A stretch of 64,000 nucleotides of DNA. Origin: Marispirochaeta sp. Lineage in GTDB: Bacteria > Spirochaetota > Spirochaetia > JC444 > Marispirochaetaceae. Position numbers and translations under genes: made by a program. A model generated the notes under the pieces. That model saw only the letters and a list, made by a program, of their open reading frames with translations. It made no database searches and was not told the origin of the DNA. The stretch spans positions 32,001-96,000 of the forward strand of contig CAXXFF010000003.1 in the NCBI GenBank assembly GCA_963676835.2. The letters are read 5' to 3'. Of the stretch, positions 44,815 through 51,464 are shown in pieces (position 1 is the stretch's first letter; each line of letters begins with the position of its first letter).

Positions 44815-45759
44815 ATGGAAAAACTTTCCCGCCTGGATTCAGATTCAGAGCTCCGCAAAAAGATCCTTCCCTACTGTCGTCTCAAGACAGGTGAAATCTG
44901 GGAAGATAAGATAAACGGTCACAGAGTCGGTACAGGCGATGTCCGGGACCATGACGTTACCTCCAATCTGTTTGACGGCAGAAAGGCCGACCTGTTTCTC
45001 AATGACCCACCCTATAATATCAGTGTAGGCAGCAGAAATACCGATGCCCTGTCGCAATACTCTGTTGAACAATATATTGAGTTTACACGGGACTGGTTAA
45101 ATTCCACCCTTATCTATCTTAACGATCATGCCCACTTTTATTTATGGACAGGCGCAGATCAGCGTGCAGGGTTCCAGCCTCTCCCGGAACTGATGCTTCT
45201 CATGAGGGAATATCCCCAACTTACCAGCAGAAGCTTTATTACAATGCGTAATCAGCGGGGATACGGAACTCAGAATAACTGGATGAGTGTACGACAGGAA
45301 CTTCTGTATTATATAAAAGGGAACCCGGGGTTCGATGTCCGCTATACGGATATCCCCAAAATTCTCAAAGGTTATTACAAGACAGTGTCCGGTAAAAGAA
45401 CAGAAAACATGGAACGCAGTAAAAGTGACTGCATAAGGCCGGGGAACGTATGGGTAGATATACAGCAGGTATTTTACCGGATGAAGGAAAATGTCCCCGG
45501 AGCGTATGCACAAAAACCGTTAAAAGCCGCTCTTCGCATCCTGGATGCATGCAGCTTAGGCCCAGGATCGATAACAGCCGACTTTTTCAGCCATTCAGGA
45601 ACCAGCCTGATAGCTGCCGAACAGAAAGGTCTTCAGTGCTTCACCATGGACATTGATCCGGTTTTTGCCGAATTATCCATCCGCCGTCTTGAACATTTCC
45701 GGAAAACCGGAGAACCCGGCTGGCAGACAGAATCTCCTTTTCCGGAAATATTCCCCTGA
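44815..45759 (+). CDS. Beta-class N6A/N4C DNA methyltransferase, orphan
   Basis: DPPYN (motif IV) precedes QKP and DFFSHSGT (motif I). Confidence 0.85.
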   Translation: MEKLSRLDSDSELRKKILPYCRLKTGEIWEDKINGHRVGTGDVRDHDVTSNLFDGRKADLFLNDPPYNISVGSRNTDALSQYSVEQYIEFTRDWLNSTLIYLNDHAHFYLWTGADQRAGFQPLPELMLLMREYPQLTSRSFITMRNQRGYGTQNNWMSVRQELLYYIKGNPGFDVRYTDIPKILKGYYKTVSGKRTENMERSKSDCIRPGNVWVDIQQVFYRMKENVPGAYAQKPLKAALRILDACSLGPGSITADFFSHSGTSLIAAEQKGLQCFTMDIDPVFAELSIRRLEHFRKTGEPGWQTESPFPEIFP

Positions 45760-45838: not shown

Positions 45839-45917
45839 TTGCTACCCGATATATAGTGTGTTAAGATAGCTGAAAGATCAAACAAGGCACTATATATAAC
45901 GGCCCTACATATAGCGT
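45839..45917 (+). promoter_or_regulatory. nrd operon promoter with NrdR boxes
   Basis: TTGCTA (45839)-17 bp-TAAGAT (45862); boxes ACCCGATATATAGTGT (45844), GCACTATATATAACGG (45887) and GCCCTACATATAGCGT (45902) resemble ACACWATATATWGTGT. Confidence 0.78.
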
Positions 45918-45957
45918 GTATTATGCCAGGTTAAATAATTTCTTTGTTGGTAGGAAA

Positions 45958-46413
45958 ATGCGTTGTCCCCATTGTCAGGAAACAGAAGATAAGGTTATAG
46001 AGTCCAGACAGAATGCCAGCGGAACCTCAATCCGTCGACGCCGTGAGTGTACCGGTTGCGGGTACAGATTCACCTCCTATGAGAGGATAGAAGAAAAACC
46101 GCTCATGGTGATAAAACGGGACGGCCGCAGGGAACCCTTTTCCATAGAAAAAATTGAAGAAGGAATTCAGCGCTCATTGCAGAAACGTCCGGTTTCCCAA
46201 AAGCAGGTAGAAGATTTACTCCATGCAATTGAAGATGAAGCAGTACTGCTTGCCCGGAACAGCCGGGAGATCAAAGCCGAGAACATCGGCGATCTGGTGT
46301 TGCGTAAACTTTATGAACTGGATGGTGTAGCTTATGTCCGTTTTGCATCAGTATACCGCATGTTTGACAATGTAGGTGAATTTATCAACGAAATAGAAAA
46401 ACTGTCCCGATAG
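45958..46413 (+). CDS. nrdR: Transcriptional repressor NrdR
   Basis: MRCPHC...IRRRRECTGCGYRFTSYE, ATP cone, VAYVRFASVYR. Confidence 0.97.
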   Translation: MRCPHCQETEDKVIESRQNASGTSIRRRRECTGCGYRFTSYERIEEKPLMVIKRDGRREPFSIEKIEEGIQRSLQKRPVSQKQVEDLLHAIEDEAVLLARNSREIKAENIGDLVLRKLYELDGVAYVRFASVYRMFDNVGEFINEIEKLSR

Positions 46414-46467: not shown

Positions 46468-48573
46468 ATGTCCGAAAACAGCTGGAAAGATTTTTTAAAA
46501 GAACATCATTCTGTCAGCCAGGAAGGGCCGGTACGACAGGTGGTCAAACGGGACGGCGAAACAGAAAGCTACGACCGCTGGCGTATTGCATCAGCTGTCA
46601 GCCGGGCTGTAAATGCAGCCCGGGACACGGATGATCAGGCGCTGGTAGAGGTTCTTACCTCCAAGGTAGAACGGCGCCTGCTTGAGTTCATGCAGTCCCG
46701 TCACCCCAATAGTGCCCCTGCGGTGGAAGAGATTCAGGATCTGGTGGAAAATGTTCTTATCGACAGCGGCGAAAGCGATATTGCCAAGAAATATATTATC
46801 TACCGCGCCCGGCATGAGGTCATGCGGGATACAAAAAAACTTATGGTTGATATCAACTCAACCATGGACGGTTACCTCAGCCAGTCAGACTGGCGGGTTA
46901 ATGAGAACGCCAATGTAAATTTTTCCCTTGGCGGACTTATCCTGCATAATTCCGGAACCATAACGGCAAACTACTGGCTTAAAAACATCTACCCCGAAGA
47001 AATTGCAGATGCCCATAGAAAAGCCGACTTTCATATTCATGATCTCTCAATGTTTTCCGGCTACTGTGCCGGCTGGTCCTTAAGACAGCTTATTCAGGAA
47101 GGTCTTGGCGGAGTACCCGATAAGATCACCTCAACTCCGGCAAAACATCTTTCCACCCTTATCCAGCAGGTGGTTAACTTCCTCGGCATTATGCAGAATG
47201 AGTGGGCAGGCGCTCAGGCACTTTCAAGCTTTGATACCTACCTTGCTCCTTTTGTAAAAGTGGACAATCTCCAGGAGGAAGAGGTAAAACAGGCTATTCA
47301 GAGTTTTGTCTTCGGCGTAAACACCCCCTCGCGCTGGGGAAGCCAGGCACCTTTTACCAACATAACCCTGGACTGGACAGTACCTCCGGACCTTGCGGAC
47401 AAAAAAGCTCTTGTCGGCGGCGAAGAGATGAAGTTCACCTACGGAGAGTGTCAGGAAGAGATGGACCTTATCAACAAGGTCTTTATTCAGCTAATGCTTG
47501 ATGGCGATGCAAACGGAAGGGGATTTCAGTATCCCATTCCAACCTATAACATCACCAGAGATTTCGGATGGGACAGCCCAAATGCGGATCTGTTGTTTAC
47601 CATGACCGCAAAGTACGGTACCCCCTATTTTCAGAACTTTATCAACTCCGACCTGGATCCCGGCGATGTACGTTCCATGTGCTGCCGGCTGCAGCTGGAT
47701 AAGCGGGAACTGCGAAAACGCGGCGGCGGGCTTTTCGGCTCAGATGAGTTTACCGGCTCTATCGGGGTTGTTACGGTCAATCTGCCAAGAATCGGTTACC
47801 TTTCCCGTGATAAGGGGGAGTTCTACCGCAGACTTTCGCGGATGATGGATCTGGCTGCGGAATCTCTCACCATTAAACGAAAGGTGATAAACCGCCTCAT
47901 GGAAGGAGGGCTCTTCCCCTACACCATGAGGTACCTGAAACACCTCAATAACCATTTCTCCACCATTGGCATCTGCGGTATGAACGAATGCCTTAAGAAC
48001 TTCATGGGTGTGGATATTACCACCATGGAAGGAAAACAGTTTGCCATTGAAATTCTTGATTTTATGAGAGACCGCCTTGCTGATTATCAGGAACGTACAG
48101 GCGATCTGTTTAACCTGGAGGCAACCCCCGCAGAGAGCACCAGCTACCGCCTGGCCAAGCATGACAAAGAACATTATCCCAATATTATTACCGGCGGTCA
48201 GGAAGAGGTCTATTATACAAACTCAACCCAGCTCCCGGTTGAATATACAGAAGATGTATTCGAAGCCCTTGACCACCAGGATGACCTGCAGACCCGCTAT
48301 ACCGGAGGAACCGTTTTCCATGGCCTCGTAGGCGAAGCAATAGAAGATACAGAATCCTGTAAAAACCTGGTGAAGGCAGTTGCCAGTAATTACCGGCTGC
48401 CCTACTTTACCATAACACCAACCTTCTCTATCTGTCCGGTACATGGATACCTGTCGGGTGAACATTTCGACTGCCCGAAATGCAGAGAGGAAGAAGAAAT
48501 ACGGCTGAAAACAGAGATCAATAACCTCAAAGCCCTGAAAAAAGAGCTGCAGTCTCAGGCTGCCCCTGTATAA
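46468..48573 (+). CDS. nrdD: Class III ribonucleotide reductase large chain lacking the glycyl-radical loop
   Basis: ATP cone (VVKRDG), ENAN, HIHDL, YCAGW, SMCCRL, EATPAES, YTGGT, CPVHG...CPKC; no RxxGY motif. Confidence 0.93.
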   Translation: MSENSWKDFLKEHHSVSQEGPVRQVVKRDGETESYDRWRIASAVSRAVNAARDTDDQALVEVLTSKVERRLLEFMQSRHPNSAPAVEEIQDLVENVLIDSGESDIAKKYIIYRARHEVMRDTKKLMVDINSTMDGYLSQSDWRVNENANVNFSLGGLILHNSGTITANYWLKNIYPEEIADAHRKADFHIHDLSMFSGYCAGWSLRQLIQEGLGGVPDKITSTPAKHLSTLIQQVVNFLGIMQNEWAGAQALSSFDTYLAPFVKVDNLQEEEVKQAIQSFVFGVNTPSRWGSQAPFTNITLDWTVPPDLADKKALVGGEEMKFTYGECQEEMDLINKVFIQLMLDGDANGRGFQYPIPTYNITRDFGWDSPNADLLFTMTAKYGTPYFQNFINSDLDPGDVRSMCCRLQLDKRELRKRGGGLFGSDEFTGSIGVVTVNLPRIGYLSRDKGEFYRRLSRMMDLAAESLTIKRKVINRLMEGGLFPYTMRYLKHLNNHFSTIGICGMNECLKNFMGVDITTMEGKQFAIEILDFMRDRLADYQERTGDLFNLEATPAESTSYRLAKHDKEHYPNIITGGQEEVYYTNSTQLPVEYTEDVFEALDHQDDLQTRYTGGTVFHGLVGEAIEDTESCKNLVKAVASNYRLPYFTITPTFSICPVHGYLSGEHFDCPKCREEEEIRLKTEINNLKALKKELQSQAAPV

Positions 48574-48603
48574 ACGAAACGGTTTAAAGAAAGGACGGAA
48601 AGA

Positions 48604-49128
48604 ATGAAGAAAACAGAAATGACCATCAGCGACGTGGAAAAGAAACTCGAAGAACTTACCATGAACCTCAAGAATGTCCGGGGAAGAACAACTGAAGTCT
48701 ACACACGGATAGTAGGTTATTACCGTTCAGTGAAAAACTGGAACCGGGGTAAACGGGAAGAATACGATTACAGAACTCCCTATAATGTTCCCGCAGATAT
48801 GCCCAAAGCAGAAATGAAGAGGTCCGCAGATGCGTTTAGTGCTGACACTGCAGCTTCACCGGAAACCTCCGGCATTGCCAGCTACCAGTATTTTTTCCGC
48901 ACAACCTGCCCTAACTGTCCGCCGGTAAAAAGTTACCTCAGCGAGCTGGGCTTCAGCGGCAATGAAATTAATGTTGATATGGAAGAAGGCTACAGCCTGG
49001 CCGGAAATCTTGCAGTCTGCGCTACTCCGACTGTTATCTTCAGGGATGTCAGGGGAGATGAAATATTCCGGGCTTCCAACCTTCAGGATTTAATCAAATC
49101 CTTTGAAAAAGAACAGGCTGCGGTTTAA
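48604..49128 (+). CDS. Stand-alone NrdD glycyl-radical domain fused to a glutaredoxin/thioredoxin-like domain
   Basis: EVYTRIVGYYRSVKNWNRGKREE (Gly38); C-terminal CPNC and TPT redoxin motifs. Confidence 0.88.
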   Translation: MKKTEMTISDVEKKLEELTMNLKNVRGRTTEVYTRIVGYYRSVKNWNRGKREEYDYRTPYNVPADMPKAEMKRSADAFSADTAASPETSGIASYQYFFRTTCPNCPPVKSYLSELGFSGNEINVDMEEGYSLAGNLAVCATPTVIFRDVRGDEIFRASNLQDLIKSFEKEQAAV

Positions 49129-49130
49129 GT

Positions 49131-49832
49131 CTGAACTGGGGCCTTATAAAAACATCTCTTTTAGATTATCCCGGCAAGGTAGCTGCAGTCCTGTTCACCC
49201 GGGGCTGCAATTACCGCTGCCCCTTCTGTCATAATCCGGAACTCGTAACAGGACCGGAACCATCAGATTTTCTCACCAGGCAAGAAGTTCTCTCATATCT
49301 GACAAAGCGTCGAAATGTCCTTGGCGGCGTCTCCATTACAGGAGGCGAACCGCTGATGCATGAGGAGACACTTTCAATGATCGAGAGCATCCATGCCCTG
49401 GGACTGCCGGTAAAGCTTGACACTAACGGCTCCTTTCCTGAAAGGCTTACTGAAAGCGGTGCCGATTATTTTGCCATGGATATTAAGACAGCCTTCTCAC
49501 GATATGCATCCGTGCTGAATGAAAATGCGGATATTGAAGCATCTGTAGATAAAGTAAAGCAGTCTATCAGACTTATCCTGAAATCCGGTACTCCTCACCA
49601 GTTTCGTACCACCATGGTTCCGGGAATTGTTGGTCCGGAAGATTTTAATGAGATTATTCCCTCGGTAAAAGGTGCATATTCCTATCTGCTTTCAGGGTTC
49701 AGACCGGGGAACACCCTGGATACAAATTTCAGTAATCTTGAACCATATGATGATGCGGTTCTAACCGGAACTGCTGCGATGCTTGAAGGAGCGGGTATAA
49801 AAGTAAAGATTGCATGGAATAAAACAGCTTAG
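49131..49832 (+). CDS. nrdG: Anaerobic RNR activating enzyme (radical SAM), probable CTG start
   Basis: The frame extends 75 codons upstream of the ORF-track ATG and contains KTSLLDYPGKVAAVLFTRGCNYRCPFCHNPEL and SITGGEPL; KLDTNGS and FRTT downstream. Confidence 0.88.
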   Translation: MNWGLIKTSLLDYPGKVAAVLFTRGCNYRCPFCHNPELVTGPEPSDFLTRQEVLSYLTKRRNVLGGVSITGGEPLMHEETLSMIESIHALGLPVKLDTNGSFPERLTESGADYFAMDIKTAFSRYASVLNENADIEASVDKVKQSIRLILKSGTPHQFRTTMVPGIVGPEDFNEIIPSVKGAYSYLLSGFRPGNTLDTNFSNLEPYDDAVLTGTAAMLEGAGIKVKIAWNKTA

Positions 49833-50197: not shown

Positions 50198-51343
50198 TTA
50201 CGTCAAATTTTCCCCGGGATTCGTAAACAGATGGTCAAACTGGGAGTGAAAACGACGGGGGACCATGATTTCCTGAACCGCAGACAGGGCGAAATCATCG
50301 GTCATGCCGGCAATATAATCAATCACAACACTCTTACCTGAGGCCTCTTCACTGCGATAAAGTTCCTGCATTTTGACAAGATATTCGCCAAAACGGGCAG
50401 CAAGAGTATTCCCTTCCCTTGAGTAGCCTGCATAATTATCCTTATGGGAGTCATAAAGATCGATGAGATACTCAAAAAGGGTAAACAGGATACGCCGGAA
50501 GTATCGGTGATACTCGCTGAGCAGTCGGTGCTTGTATATATTGCGGTAATTAAAATTTCTGAATTCCAGCAGAGCTTCATATACTTCGCGGGAAAATCCG
50601 ATACTTCCTGTTCGTAGAGAAGAGCGGATCATATCATTTACCAGGGTATCTATTATTTCACCATTGGATTCGCCGAGGACATCCCCTACGGCATGGGGCA
50701 AATCATCCCTGGATAACATTTTCAGATTAACAGCATCCTCAAAATCACGGCCGATGTAAGCGATTTTATCAGACATCCGCACAATACATCCTTCCCAGGT
50801 GGAGGGATACCGGTTTCTGTTTTCAATTGAGGAAAGATCCTTCAACTCGAAATCCGGGACAATTGCCTGTTCGAACTGCTCACCGCAATGATTTATTATC
50901 CCGTCACGGACGGCATAGGTCAGATTAAGACCTTTTCCTTTATTGGCAAGCTTATCTACAACCCTTAAGGAATATAGTTCATGGGCAAAAGGCTCACCTA
51001 AAAGTTCTTCAACAATTTTTTCTCCCACATGCCCGAAGGGAGTATGCCCGAGGTCATGGCCAAGACCTATAGCCCAGGCCAGATCTGCATCAAGATTAAG
51101 GGAGCGGCAGACCGTTGCTGAAACGCTTGCCACATGCAGGACATGTTCAATGCGGGTACAGATATGATCATTGTCAGGGGTAAAAAAGACCTGCGTTTTA
51201 TGCTTGAGACGCCTGAAAGGGTTTGAATGAATGATGGCGGTGGTATCACGAAAATAGGCACCCCGTATATCATTGTCCCTGGGTCGTATACGTCCGGTAA
51301 GTTCTTCTCTGGTGAGGGTACTGGAAAAAAATAGACTGCTCAT
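50198..51343 (-). CDS. dgt: dGTP triphosphohydrolase (HD family)
   Basis: FRRLKHKTQVF, TRIEH, GHDLGHTPFGHVGE, DYIAGMTDDFA. Confidence 0.9.
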   Translation of the reverse strand: MSSLFFSSTLTREELTGRIRPRDNDIRGAYFRDTTAIIHSNPFRRLKHKTQVFFTPDNDHICTRIEHVLHVASVSATVCRSLNLDADLAWAIGLGHDLGHTPFGHVGEKIVEELLGEPFAHELYSLRVVDKLANKGKGLNLTYAVRDGIINHCGEQFEQAIVPDFELKDLSSIENRNRYPSTWEGCIVRMSDKIAYIGRDFEDAVNLKMLSRDDLPHAVGDVLGESNGEIIDTLVNDMIRSSLRTGSIGFSREVYEALLEFRNFNYRNIYKHRLLSEYHRYFRRILFTLFEYLIDLYDSHKDNYAGYSREGNTLAARFGEYLVKMQELYRSEEASGKSVVIDYIAGMTDDFALSAVQEIMVPRRFHSQFDHLFTNPGENLT

Positions 51344-51464
51344 ACTTACTATAAGTCTGCCTTCCACGGATACCTGCTGTCAAGTTCAACTTGAAATTTA
51401 TATGAGAAAGTTGCATTCCAACTTTTGAATGCTTAAGATAACTGTATGCAGGAGCATCCGTAGT

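Follow-up and report, generated by a model that had tools for sequence, protein, structure and literature searches.

Conserved heptad segments flank the break in a class III ribonucleotide reductase predicted to consist of two chains in Spirochaetota

Glycyl-radical enzymes are treated as single chains, with a C-terminal radical domain that must flip out to meet the activase. In Marispirochaeta sp. (GenBank assembly GCA_963676835.2, contig CAXXFF010000003.1, positions 32,001 to 96,000 of the forward strand; this stretch of 64,000 nucleotides is hereafter the window), the glycyl-radical loop of the class III ribonucleotide reductase NrdD, an oxygen-sensitive supplier of DNA precursors, is instead encoded by a separate gene, following that of a large chain which ends shortly after its Zn site. 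The locus raises two questions: whether the break is an accidental stop or an evolved division of the enzyme, and what holds the two products together. The original prediction was that the segments bordering the break, termed here tail (large chain) and head (small chain), form an inter-chain coiled coil that replaces the covalent link. Here we show that these segments are strictly linked to the split, and we argue that they quite probably pair with each other.

Distribution of NrdD between two chains

The large chain matches the Pfam family NRDD (PF13597) over model positions 1-533 of 562 (593 bits, 7.1e-178), along with an ATP-cone (Pfam, 1.6e-19) and the NCBIfam model NF006126 (1092 bits). 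The end of the same NRDD model, positions 532-562, is matched by residues 29-60 of the small chain, with 27.2 bits against a cut-off of 26.2. After the Zn site (CPVHGYLSGEHFDCPKC), the large chain ends with REEEEIRLKTEINNLKALKKELQSQAAPV, followed by TAA at 48571-48573; position 48484 begins the first codon past the last Zn cysteine, C672, and the chain stops 29 residues beyond this cysteine. Judging from NrdD structures, the C/H/C/C site would bind Zn. The small chain (174 amino acids, aa; start at 48604, with AAGGA 8 nucleotides, nt, ahead of its ATG) opens with MKKTEMTISDVEKKLEELTMNLKNVRG, then RTTEVYTRIVGYYR, so that 26 residues precede the G-x-x-TEVY..RIVGY glycyl-radical segment. The large chain contains no glycyl-radical loop: the RIVGY (RxxGY) motif is present and invariant, but on the 174-aa chain, where G38 (48715-48717) is the putative radical glycine. 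This glycine and 14 further residues are invariant in 88 sequences.

The finger-loop motif of the large chain, as read in translation, is MCCR, with a double cysteine. Residues 96-129 of the small chain match the Pfam Glutaredoxin domain (5.9e-5, 23.6 bits against a cut-off of 22.9), and AlphaFold2 predicts a beta-alpha-beta thioredoxin fold for residues 93-173, with a predicted local confidence (pLDDT) of about 95; weak thioredoxin matches were also found in the PDB.

Taken together, these matches identify the locus as a predicted two-subunit class III ribonucleotide reductase, class III by every model-based test except the placement of the radical motif. Because the large chain lacks a radical loop and the genome has a single NrdD locus and a single small-chain gene, the small chain is predicted to be an obligatory subunit rather than a back-up. 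Nor is the locus a split intein: neither chain contains an intein or endonuclease domain (Pfam), and the segments at the break are heptad helices of no more than 29 and 26 residues.

Recurrence of the split and its helices in Spirochaetota

With the small chain as query, matches were found in 30 of 41 genomes of the same class. At the loci of 19 relatives, the small chain starts with a similar helix in every case (19/19), and the large chain ends in a similar tail wherever upstream DNA is available (18/18). A scan of one genome per species yielded 574 relatives among 593 pattern matches; the best 80 of the 574 are titled Spirochaetota, bar one contig labelled Collinsella, and include Marispirochaeta, Treponema (among others, T. 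pectinovorum ATCC 33768 and the strain Treponema sp. OMZ 840) and metagenome-assembled genomes of Spirochaetales. Both chains were recovered from 93 of 100 loci; five others are truncated by the end of the contig or locus, and the remaining two (L027 and L091) are described below. After removal of duplicates, 88 distinct large/small pairs from Spirochaetota were retained, and all family counts refer to these. Since the two-gene layout with both helices recurs across Spirochaetota, the split can be considered established, on comparative sequence grounds, as evolved, old and widespread; that it is not an accidental stop had been part of the original prediction.

The arrangement of the two genes bears on the same point. 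The gaps between them range from -26 to +346 nt, 11 of the 88 pairs overlap (gap of 0 or less), and a Shine-Dalgarno-like site precedes the small-chain ATG in 82. The gap is a multiple of three in 30 of the 88 pairs, which is the proportion expected by chance. In the window, both chains happen to share a frame, with one TAA and 10 sense codons between them (48571-48603), and this in-frame TAA could pass for a nonsense mutation or a read-through site; because only 30 of the 88 relatives are in frame, it is a coincidence. An accidental stop, an assembly error or read-through, with the protein really made as one chain, would agree with the 30-nt spacer that preserves the frame in this genome, but given the chance proportion of in-frame gaps, the overlapping genes, the gaps of up to 346 nt and the prevalence of Shine-Dalgarno-like sites, we consider this explanation hardly credible, and read-through of the TAA was rejected for the family as a whole on the counts of gap frames and Shine-Dalgarno-like sites.

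In many Treponema genomes (L039-L100), the gap is 100-346 nt, compared with -8 to +50 nt in most other lineages, a distance at which the small chain could have a promoter or regulatory element of its own. A Treponema contig from an uncultured member of the genus (L027:2986-3531) carries a complete small-chain gene, with the helix, radical loop and redoxin domain, and no NrdD large chain in the 3 kb upstream; this gene may be a dispersed or extra copy. An apparently fused frame of 856 aa (L091) was rejected: it extends spuriously upstream in a different frame, and the large chain at this locus ends in its own tail helix. The contig titled uncultured Collinsella sp. (L044; Actinomycetota) encodes a split NrdD that adjoins that of Treponema pectinovorum on the tree with 99% support; the contig is probably mis-binned, although a recent transfer is conceivable.

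In the phylogenetic tree, the split forms and unsplit, redoxin-fused forms make up one clade (100% support) with poorly supported basal branches. The distribution of the split forms requires at least three changes, of which well-supported branches force only one. A single fission, several fissions and a re-fusion all fit this tree, which could not decide among the three.

The comparison with unsplit relatives separates the helices from the rest of NrdD. We collected 25 unsplit relatives (18 from a search for longer proteins, two from the same class and five from the next score band of a profile search described below). In all 25, a spacer of 11 residues connects the last Zn cysteine to the radical glycine, and 18 read CPxCGxxTEVYTRIVG, in agreement with the earlier notion that the Zn site normally runs straight into the TEVY..RIVGY segment; in the NrdD of T. 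maritima (4COI) the spacing is 12 residues, against 66 here, distributed over two chains. None of the 25 carries the helices; an insert equally common in unsplit NrdD, which would have counted against the original prediction, was thus not found. Eleven of the 25 are already fused to the same redoxin domain (six of 728-833 aa and five of 821-897 aa).

A profile of the head helix together with the radical loop matched in 269 of 401 genomes of the class. The best 150 rows all match from profile position 2-4, helix included, in open frames of 76-469 aa; among the longer of these frames, one was checked (G033, 374 aa) and proved to be a spurious upstream extension. In the next score band (E-values of 1e-15 to 1e-18), all five sampled genomes encode unsplit forms; in these, the match does not begin before profile position 23-27, the spacer is 11 residues long and a redoxin domain is present at the C-terminus. 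A profile of this kind, run against 1.84 billion representative proteins, gave 3701 matches at an E-value of 0.001 or below and 586 at 1e-10 or below. The best 150 of the 3701 are all proteins of 51-255 aa that match from residues 1-27; a rare fused form carrying the helices could still occur beyond the best 150 of the 586 strong matches. Small chains of 65-83 aa that have no redoxin domain (L107/G035 and L108/G039) retain the head helix. The helices are strictly linked to the split. In some lineages, among them those of L107, L108, P0133 and P0256, the small chain is limited to 65-106 aa and consists of the head helix and radical loop, without a redoxin domain.

The case for and against helix pairing

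To compare the two segments across the family, tail positions were counted from the last Zn cysteine and head positions backwards from the glycine of G-x-x-TEVY (G27). With these anchors, there is no indel in either helix across the 88 pairs. Leu, Ile, Val, Met or Phe occupies tail positions +8, +12 and +15 in 98% of the pairs each, +22 in 86% and +23 in 66%. In the head, the same residues occupy -16 and -12 in 100%, -2 in 97%, -5 in 93%, -19 in 92% and -9 in 64%, the latter position being otherwise mostly Thr. Nearly all remaining positions are hydrophobic in no more than 22% of the pairs and highly variable, and column entropy is 0.2-1.3 bits at most core positions versus 2-3.3 elsewhere. 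The other conserved positions of the tail are Lys/Arg at +19 (95%) and Glu at +3 (98%), +16 (86%) and +18 (77%); the head has Glu/Asp at -15 (91%). The loose ends of the helices vary in length, with 0-11 residues past tail +23 and 1-21 residues before head -21. In the window, the tail core consists of L680, I684, L687, K691 and L694 (+8, +12, +15, +19 and +22), and the head core of I8, V11, L15, L18, L22 and V25 (-19, -16, -12, -9, -5 and -2).

At the level of the family, the heptad pattern is far beyond chance, and the heptad-like Leu/Ile/Val spacing originally noticed in the two segments of the window is confirmed. For the window sequence taken on its own, a crude test of the a/d register found that 143 of 20000 shuffles of the head were as good as the actual sequence. 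AlphaFold2 predicts a helix at residues 670-698 of the large chain (block pLDDT 96-97) and, in the small chain, helices at 8-24 (block pLDDT 91) and 43-56, along with a radical loop of low confidence and a disordered linker. Both partners thus present what is expected of an antiparallel coiled coil, namely, hydrophobic a/d positions over at least 2-3 heptads and helicity, the latter by prediction.

The relative orientation of the helices follows from the point of insertion. Unsplit forms read C-G-x-x-T-E-V-Y and split forms C-(tail...stop) / (start...head)-G-x-x-T-E-V-Y, the whole module lying between two adjacent residues of the unsplit form; because these are neighbours, the bases of the helices must come together and the helices must be antiparallel. 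The registers are mirrored: tail positions 8, 12, 15, 19 and 22 correspond to head positions -5, -9, -12, -16 and -19, with i + j = 3 in each case, and therefore every layer would be an a-d' layer, as is typical of antiparallel coiled coils. Opposite charges are most clearly in excess at tail +11 / head -13, +4 / -6 and +16 / -8, with the offset of 5 residues that g-g' and e-e' contacts should have. By mutual information with average product correction (MI-APC), the top one among 506 pairs of tail and head columns is tail +12 / head -9, which is located on a predicted core layer (combinations: I-L in 36 pairs, L-T in 28, L-V in 10 and L-I in 5). Tail +16 / head -8 (mostly Glu with Lys) ranks fourth and tail +4 / head -6 fifth, and charge complementarity is strongest for +11 / -13.

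On these grounds, we consider it fairly probable that the tail and head form an inter-chain antiparallel coiled coil that holds the small chain on the large chain. The inserted module consists of a predicted helix of about 27 residues, then the stop codon, ribosome-binding site and start codon, and lastly a second predicted helix of about 25 residues. The two helices would pair as a two-stranded coiled coil with about 20 residues each, a hairpin with two chain ends in place of its loop. The core layers would be L680/L22, I684/L18, L687/L15, K691/V11 and L694/I8. The ATP-cone, ten-stranded barrel and Zn site would belong to the large chain, and the glycyl-radical loop, a floppy linker and the CPNC domain to the small chain. 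Standing in for the missing peptide bond, the zipper would hold the glycyl loop on a tether at the barrel mouth while the loop sits inside or swings out.

Several observations weigh against such pairing. One core position, +19, is taken by the conserved Lys/Arg (95%); with about 2.5-3 heptads, the coil is short; and the tail of the window is not above chance in the register test, in which 4400 of 20000 shuffles did as well. Among the 20 highest MI-APC pairs, no more than 4 lie at the expected offsets (3, -2 or 8), which is about the chance level, and covariation of tail +12 and head -9 is not significant when the tree is taken into account (p of at least 0.5). A tree inferred from the remainder of the protein shows 7 changes of state at tail +12 and 5 at head -9; in five independent pairs, the head follows in one or two and never opposes. 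The covariation evidence is weak also in that the +12 / -9 pattern had been spotted by eye before it was computed. A complex prediction for the Zn ribbon plus tail (51 aa, with an 88-row alignment) and the head (30 aa), run without controls, gave ipSAE values of 0.25 and 0.24, short of the 0.32 mark, which counts neither for nor against pairing. The contact between the helices is one that we infer, not one seen in a model or a measurement. Of the original proposal of an inter-chain coiled coil, the mirrored heptads, flanking charges, helix predictions and insertion point are in its favour; the inter-chain covariation that was to corroborate it placed its top pair on the predicted layer and did not hold up after correction for the tree.

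Amphipathic helices could as well pack on the body of the enzyme or on another partner. If they were selected for but unpaired, packing on NrdD or docking NrdG or a reductase, the small chain would be held only by its glycyl loop in the barrel. Each helix is confidently predicted alone, which suits this explanation, as does the loss of significant covariation between them after correction for relatedness; furthermore, in the pyruvate formate-lyase/YfiD system, the N-terminal portion of the spare part matters for activation by the activase and not for catalysis, as far as the accessible text of the report goes (PMC8683613). However, the two helices always co-occur, are found only in split forms and have matched lengths, mirrored heptads and opposite charges at the expected flanking offsets, and the insertion point forces their bases together, so that we regard unpaired helices as unlikely. 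Short amphipathic hairpins often assemble further, and the helices of two heterodimers might pair into a four-helix bundle that drives or regulates a higher oligomer. Quaternary changes do control NrdD activity according to the portions available of two reports (PMC11226230, PMC12662201), but nothing in the present data points to such a bundle, and class III barrels are described, in the text available to us, as dimerising with their active sites facing opposite ways (PMC9669993), which would place the hairpins far apart; this arrangement seems improbable. Finally, the segments could be neutral leftovers of the gene-splitting event, for example, of a lost inserted element, with no docking role. 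What speaks for this is the history of the split on the tree, with at least three changes, of which one is forced; yet the core is 86-100% hydrophobic and there are no indels across lineages that freely substitute the rest of the helix, and neutral sequence would not retain a conserved core. The absence of intein or endonuclease domains from both chains (Pfam) is a further argument against leftovers, which we consider quite improbable.

Known relatives, possible benefits and the nrd locus

The predicted enzyme shares with one-chain class III systems of NrdD and NrdG (T. maritima 4COI/4U3E, P. copri 8P23 and phage T4 1H78) an ATP-cone, a barrel, a Zn site and the RIVGY motif, as well as NrdG and NrdR as neighbours. 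It differs from them in that the radical loop is on a second polypeptide and about 55 extra residues, predicted as two helices, are present where the one-chain enzymes have none. The closest comparison is with the unsplit, redoxin-fused NrdDs of other Spirochaetota (P0266-P0271 and L111-L115), which belong to the same clade and share the MCCR finger loop as well as the linker and the CxxC thioredoxin-fold end, but consist of one chain with an 11-residue Zn-to-Gly spacer and no helices; they are natural before-or-after controls. The double cysteine of MCCR is also common to the large chain and the thiol-dependent NrdD2 subtype (N. bacilliformis and T. maritima; Wei et al. 2014), in which, according to the part of the source available, such a finger loop is linked to thiol rather than formate reduction (PMC9669993). 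A thioredoxin-type reductant is therefore plausible and, because MCCR puts the enzyme in this double-cysteine group, the tethered CPNC domain is, by analogy, its likely reductant; unlike in NrdD2, the presumed reductant domain would be built into the radical-bearing chain.

In engineered split proteins, leucine zippers placed at the cut rejoin the fragments (protein-fragment complementation); compared with such constructs, the zipper proposed here would be natural, ancient and antiparallel. Among natural systems, YfiD/GrcA is likewise a small free-standing protein with a glycyl-radical loop that plugs into a large partner (PMC13450708, PMC8683613). As described in the available text of these reports, YfiD/GrcA backs up an enzyme that owns a radical domain and has a disordered N-terminus, whereas the N-terminus of the small chain is a conserved heptad helix; and because its partner has no radical domain of its own, the small chain is not a spare part of the YfiD type. 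The class II ribonucleotide reductase of Pseudomonas aeruginosa, NrdJa/NrdJb, has a catalytic chain divided near the C-terminal redox/Zn region, with both pieces needed; it is of a different class and has a different break point, and the accessible part of the report describes no zipper helices (PMC4520616). Neither a split NrdD nor these helices came up in our search of the full-text literature, supplements not covered.

Oxygen destroys glycyl-radical enzymes by cleaving the chain at the glycine. The fission of NrdD may have brought freer access of NrdG to the radical loop and, by analogy with YfiD, may allow only the 174-aa small chain to be swapped after oxygen cleaves the glycyl site. A more far-reaching and decidedly tentative idea is that of a body with a snap-on cartridge of 60-200 aa, which carries the oxygen-labile radical glycine and usually its own redoxin, is clipped on by the zipper, is activated by NrdG off the enzyme, and is swapped after oxygen damage while the 700-aa body is spared. 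It would, if true, be the first case among glycyl-radical enzymes of a replaceable radical part that is both built in and obligatory, and an instance in nature of fragment complementation assisted by a coiled coil. A 2026 review, in its available part, presents spare-part proteins as known only for pyruvate formate-lyase and the matter as open for other members of the family (PMC13450708).

The present set comprises a large natural family, cultured Treponema included, whose radical loop resides on a protein of its own with an apparently purpose-built zipper. Together with its unsplit kin that have no zipper, it offers a testable system for the presentation of the radical domain to the activase, the exchange of radical parts after oxygen exposure and the stabilisation of gene fission. 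Annotation is affected as well: at present, a small chain may bear the name 'glutaredoxin', 'hypothetical protein' or 'anaerobic ribonucleoside-triphosphate reductase', and a large chain could pass for a truncated gene.

The features of the locus are listed in Table 1.

Table 1. Features of the nrd locus in the Marispirochaeta window
Feature	Position in the window	Strand	Evidence or remark
nrd operon: NrdR, NrdD large chain, 174-aa small chain, NrdG		+	
NrdR repressor gene, operon start	45916..46413	+	Pfam Zn_ribbon_NrdR 1.1e-18, ATP-cone 1.8e-23
NrdD large chain, 701 aa; ATP-cone, catalytic barrel and Zn site	46468..48573	+	Pfam and NCBIfam
Putative Zn site C656-x2-H659-x9-C669-x2-C672 (CPVHGYLSGEHFDCPKC)	48433..48483	+	C, H, C, C invariant in 88/88 large-chain ends
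Tail segment R673-V701, large chain	48484..48570	+	Family profile; AlphaFold2 helix
Spacer of 30 nt between large-chain TAA and small-chain ATG	48574..48603	+	
Head segment M1-G27, small chain	48604..48684	+	Family profile; AlphaFold2 helix
Glycyl-radical segment G27-R57 (GRTTEVYTRIVGYYRSVKNWNRGKREEYDYR)	48682..48774	+	Pfam NRDD model positions 532-562
Linker of about 35 residues, low confidence	48775..48879	+	pLDDT 42-64; length and sequence variable among relatives
Thioredoxin-fold, glutaredoxin-like domain with C102-P-N-C105 and cis-Pro motif T-P-T	48880..49128	+	
NrdG activase	~49131..49832	+	NCBIfam TIGR02495 NrdG2 167.6 bits (cut-off 131.15); CNYRCPFC motif

The start given for NrdG is tentative, in that there is no ATG, GTG or TTG upstream of its CxxxCxxC cluster (window 49107-49356). 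In four relatives of the same genus, NrdG starts with a TTG that overlaps the TGA stop of the small chain (TTGA). In the window and in the closest relative, the small-chain stop is TAA, so that the would-be TTG of NrdG reads TTA; a CTG is located two codons further downstream, at 49131.

The upstream flank of the operon is an N6/N4 DNA methylase gene (44815-45759, + strand; Pfam PF01555, 1.9e-16). On the other flank, an open reading frame of 389 aa (50198-51367, - strand) contains the HD-type motif GHDLGHTPFGH and resembles a deoxynucleoside triphosphate triphosphohydrolase. On the same contig, beyond the window (G000:C3:131233-133380), a 1132-aa open frame matches the large subunit of class I/II-type ribonucleotide reductases (PF02867, 356.6 bits), and the split NrdD is therefore not the sole reductase of this bacterium.

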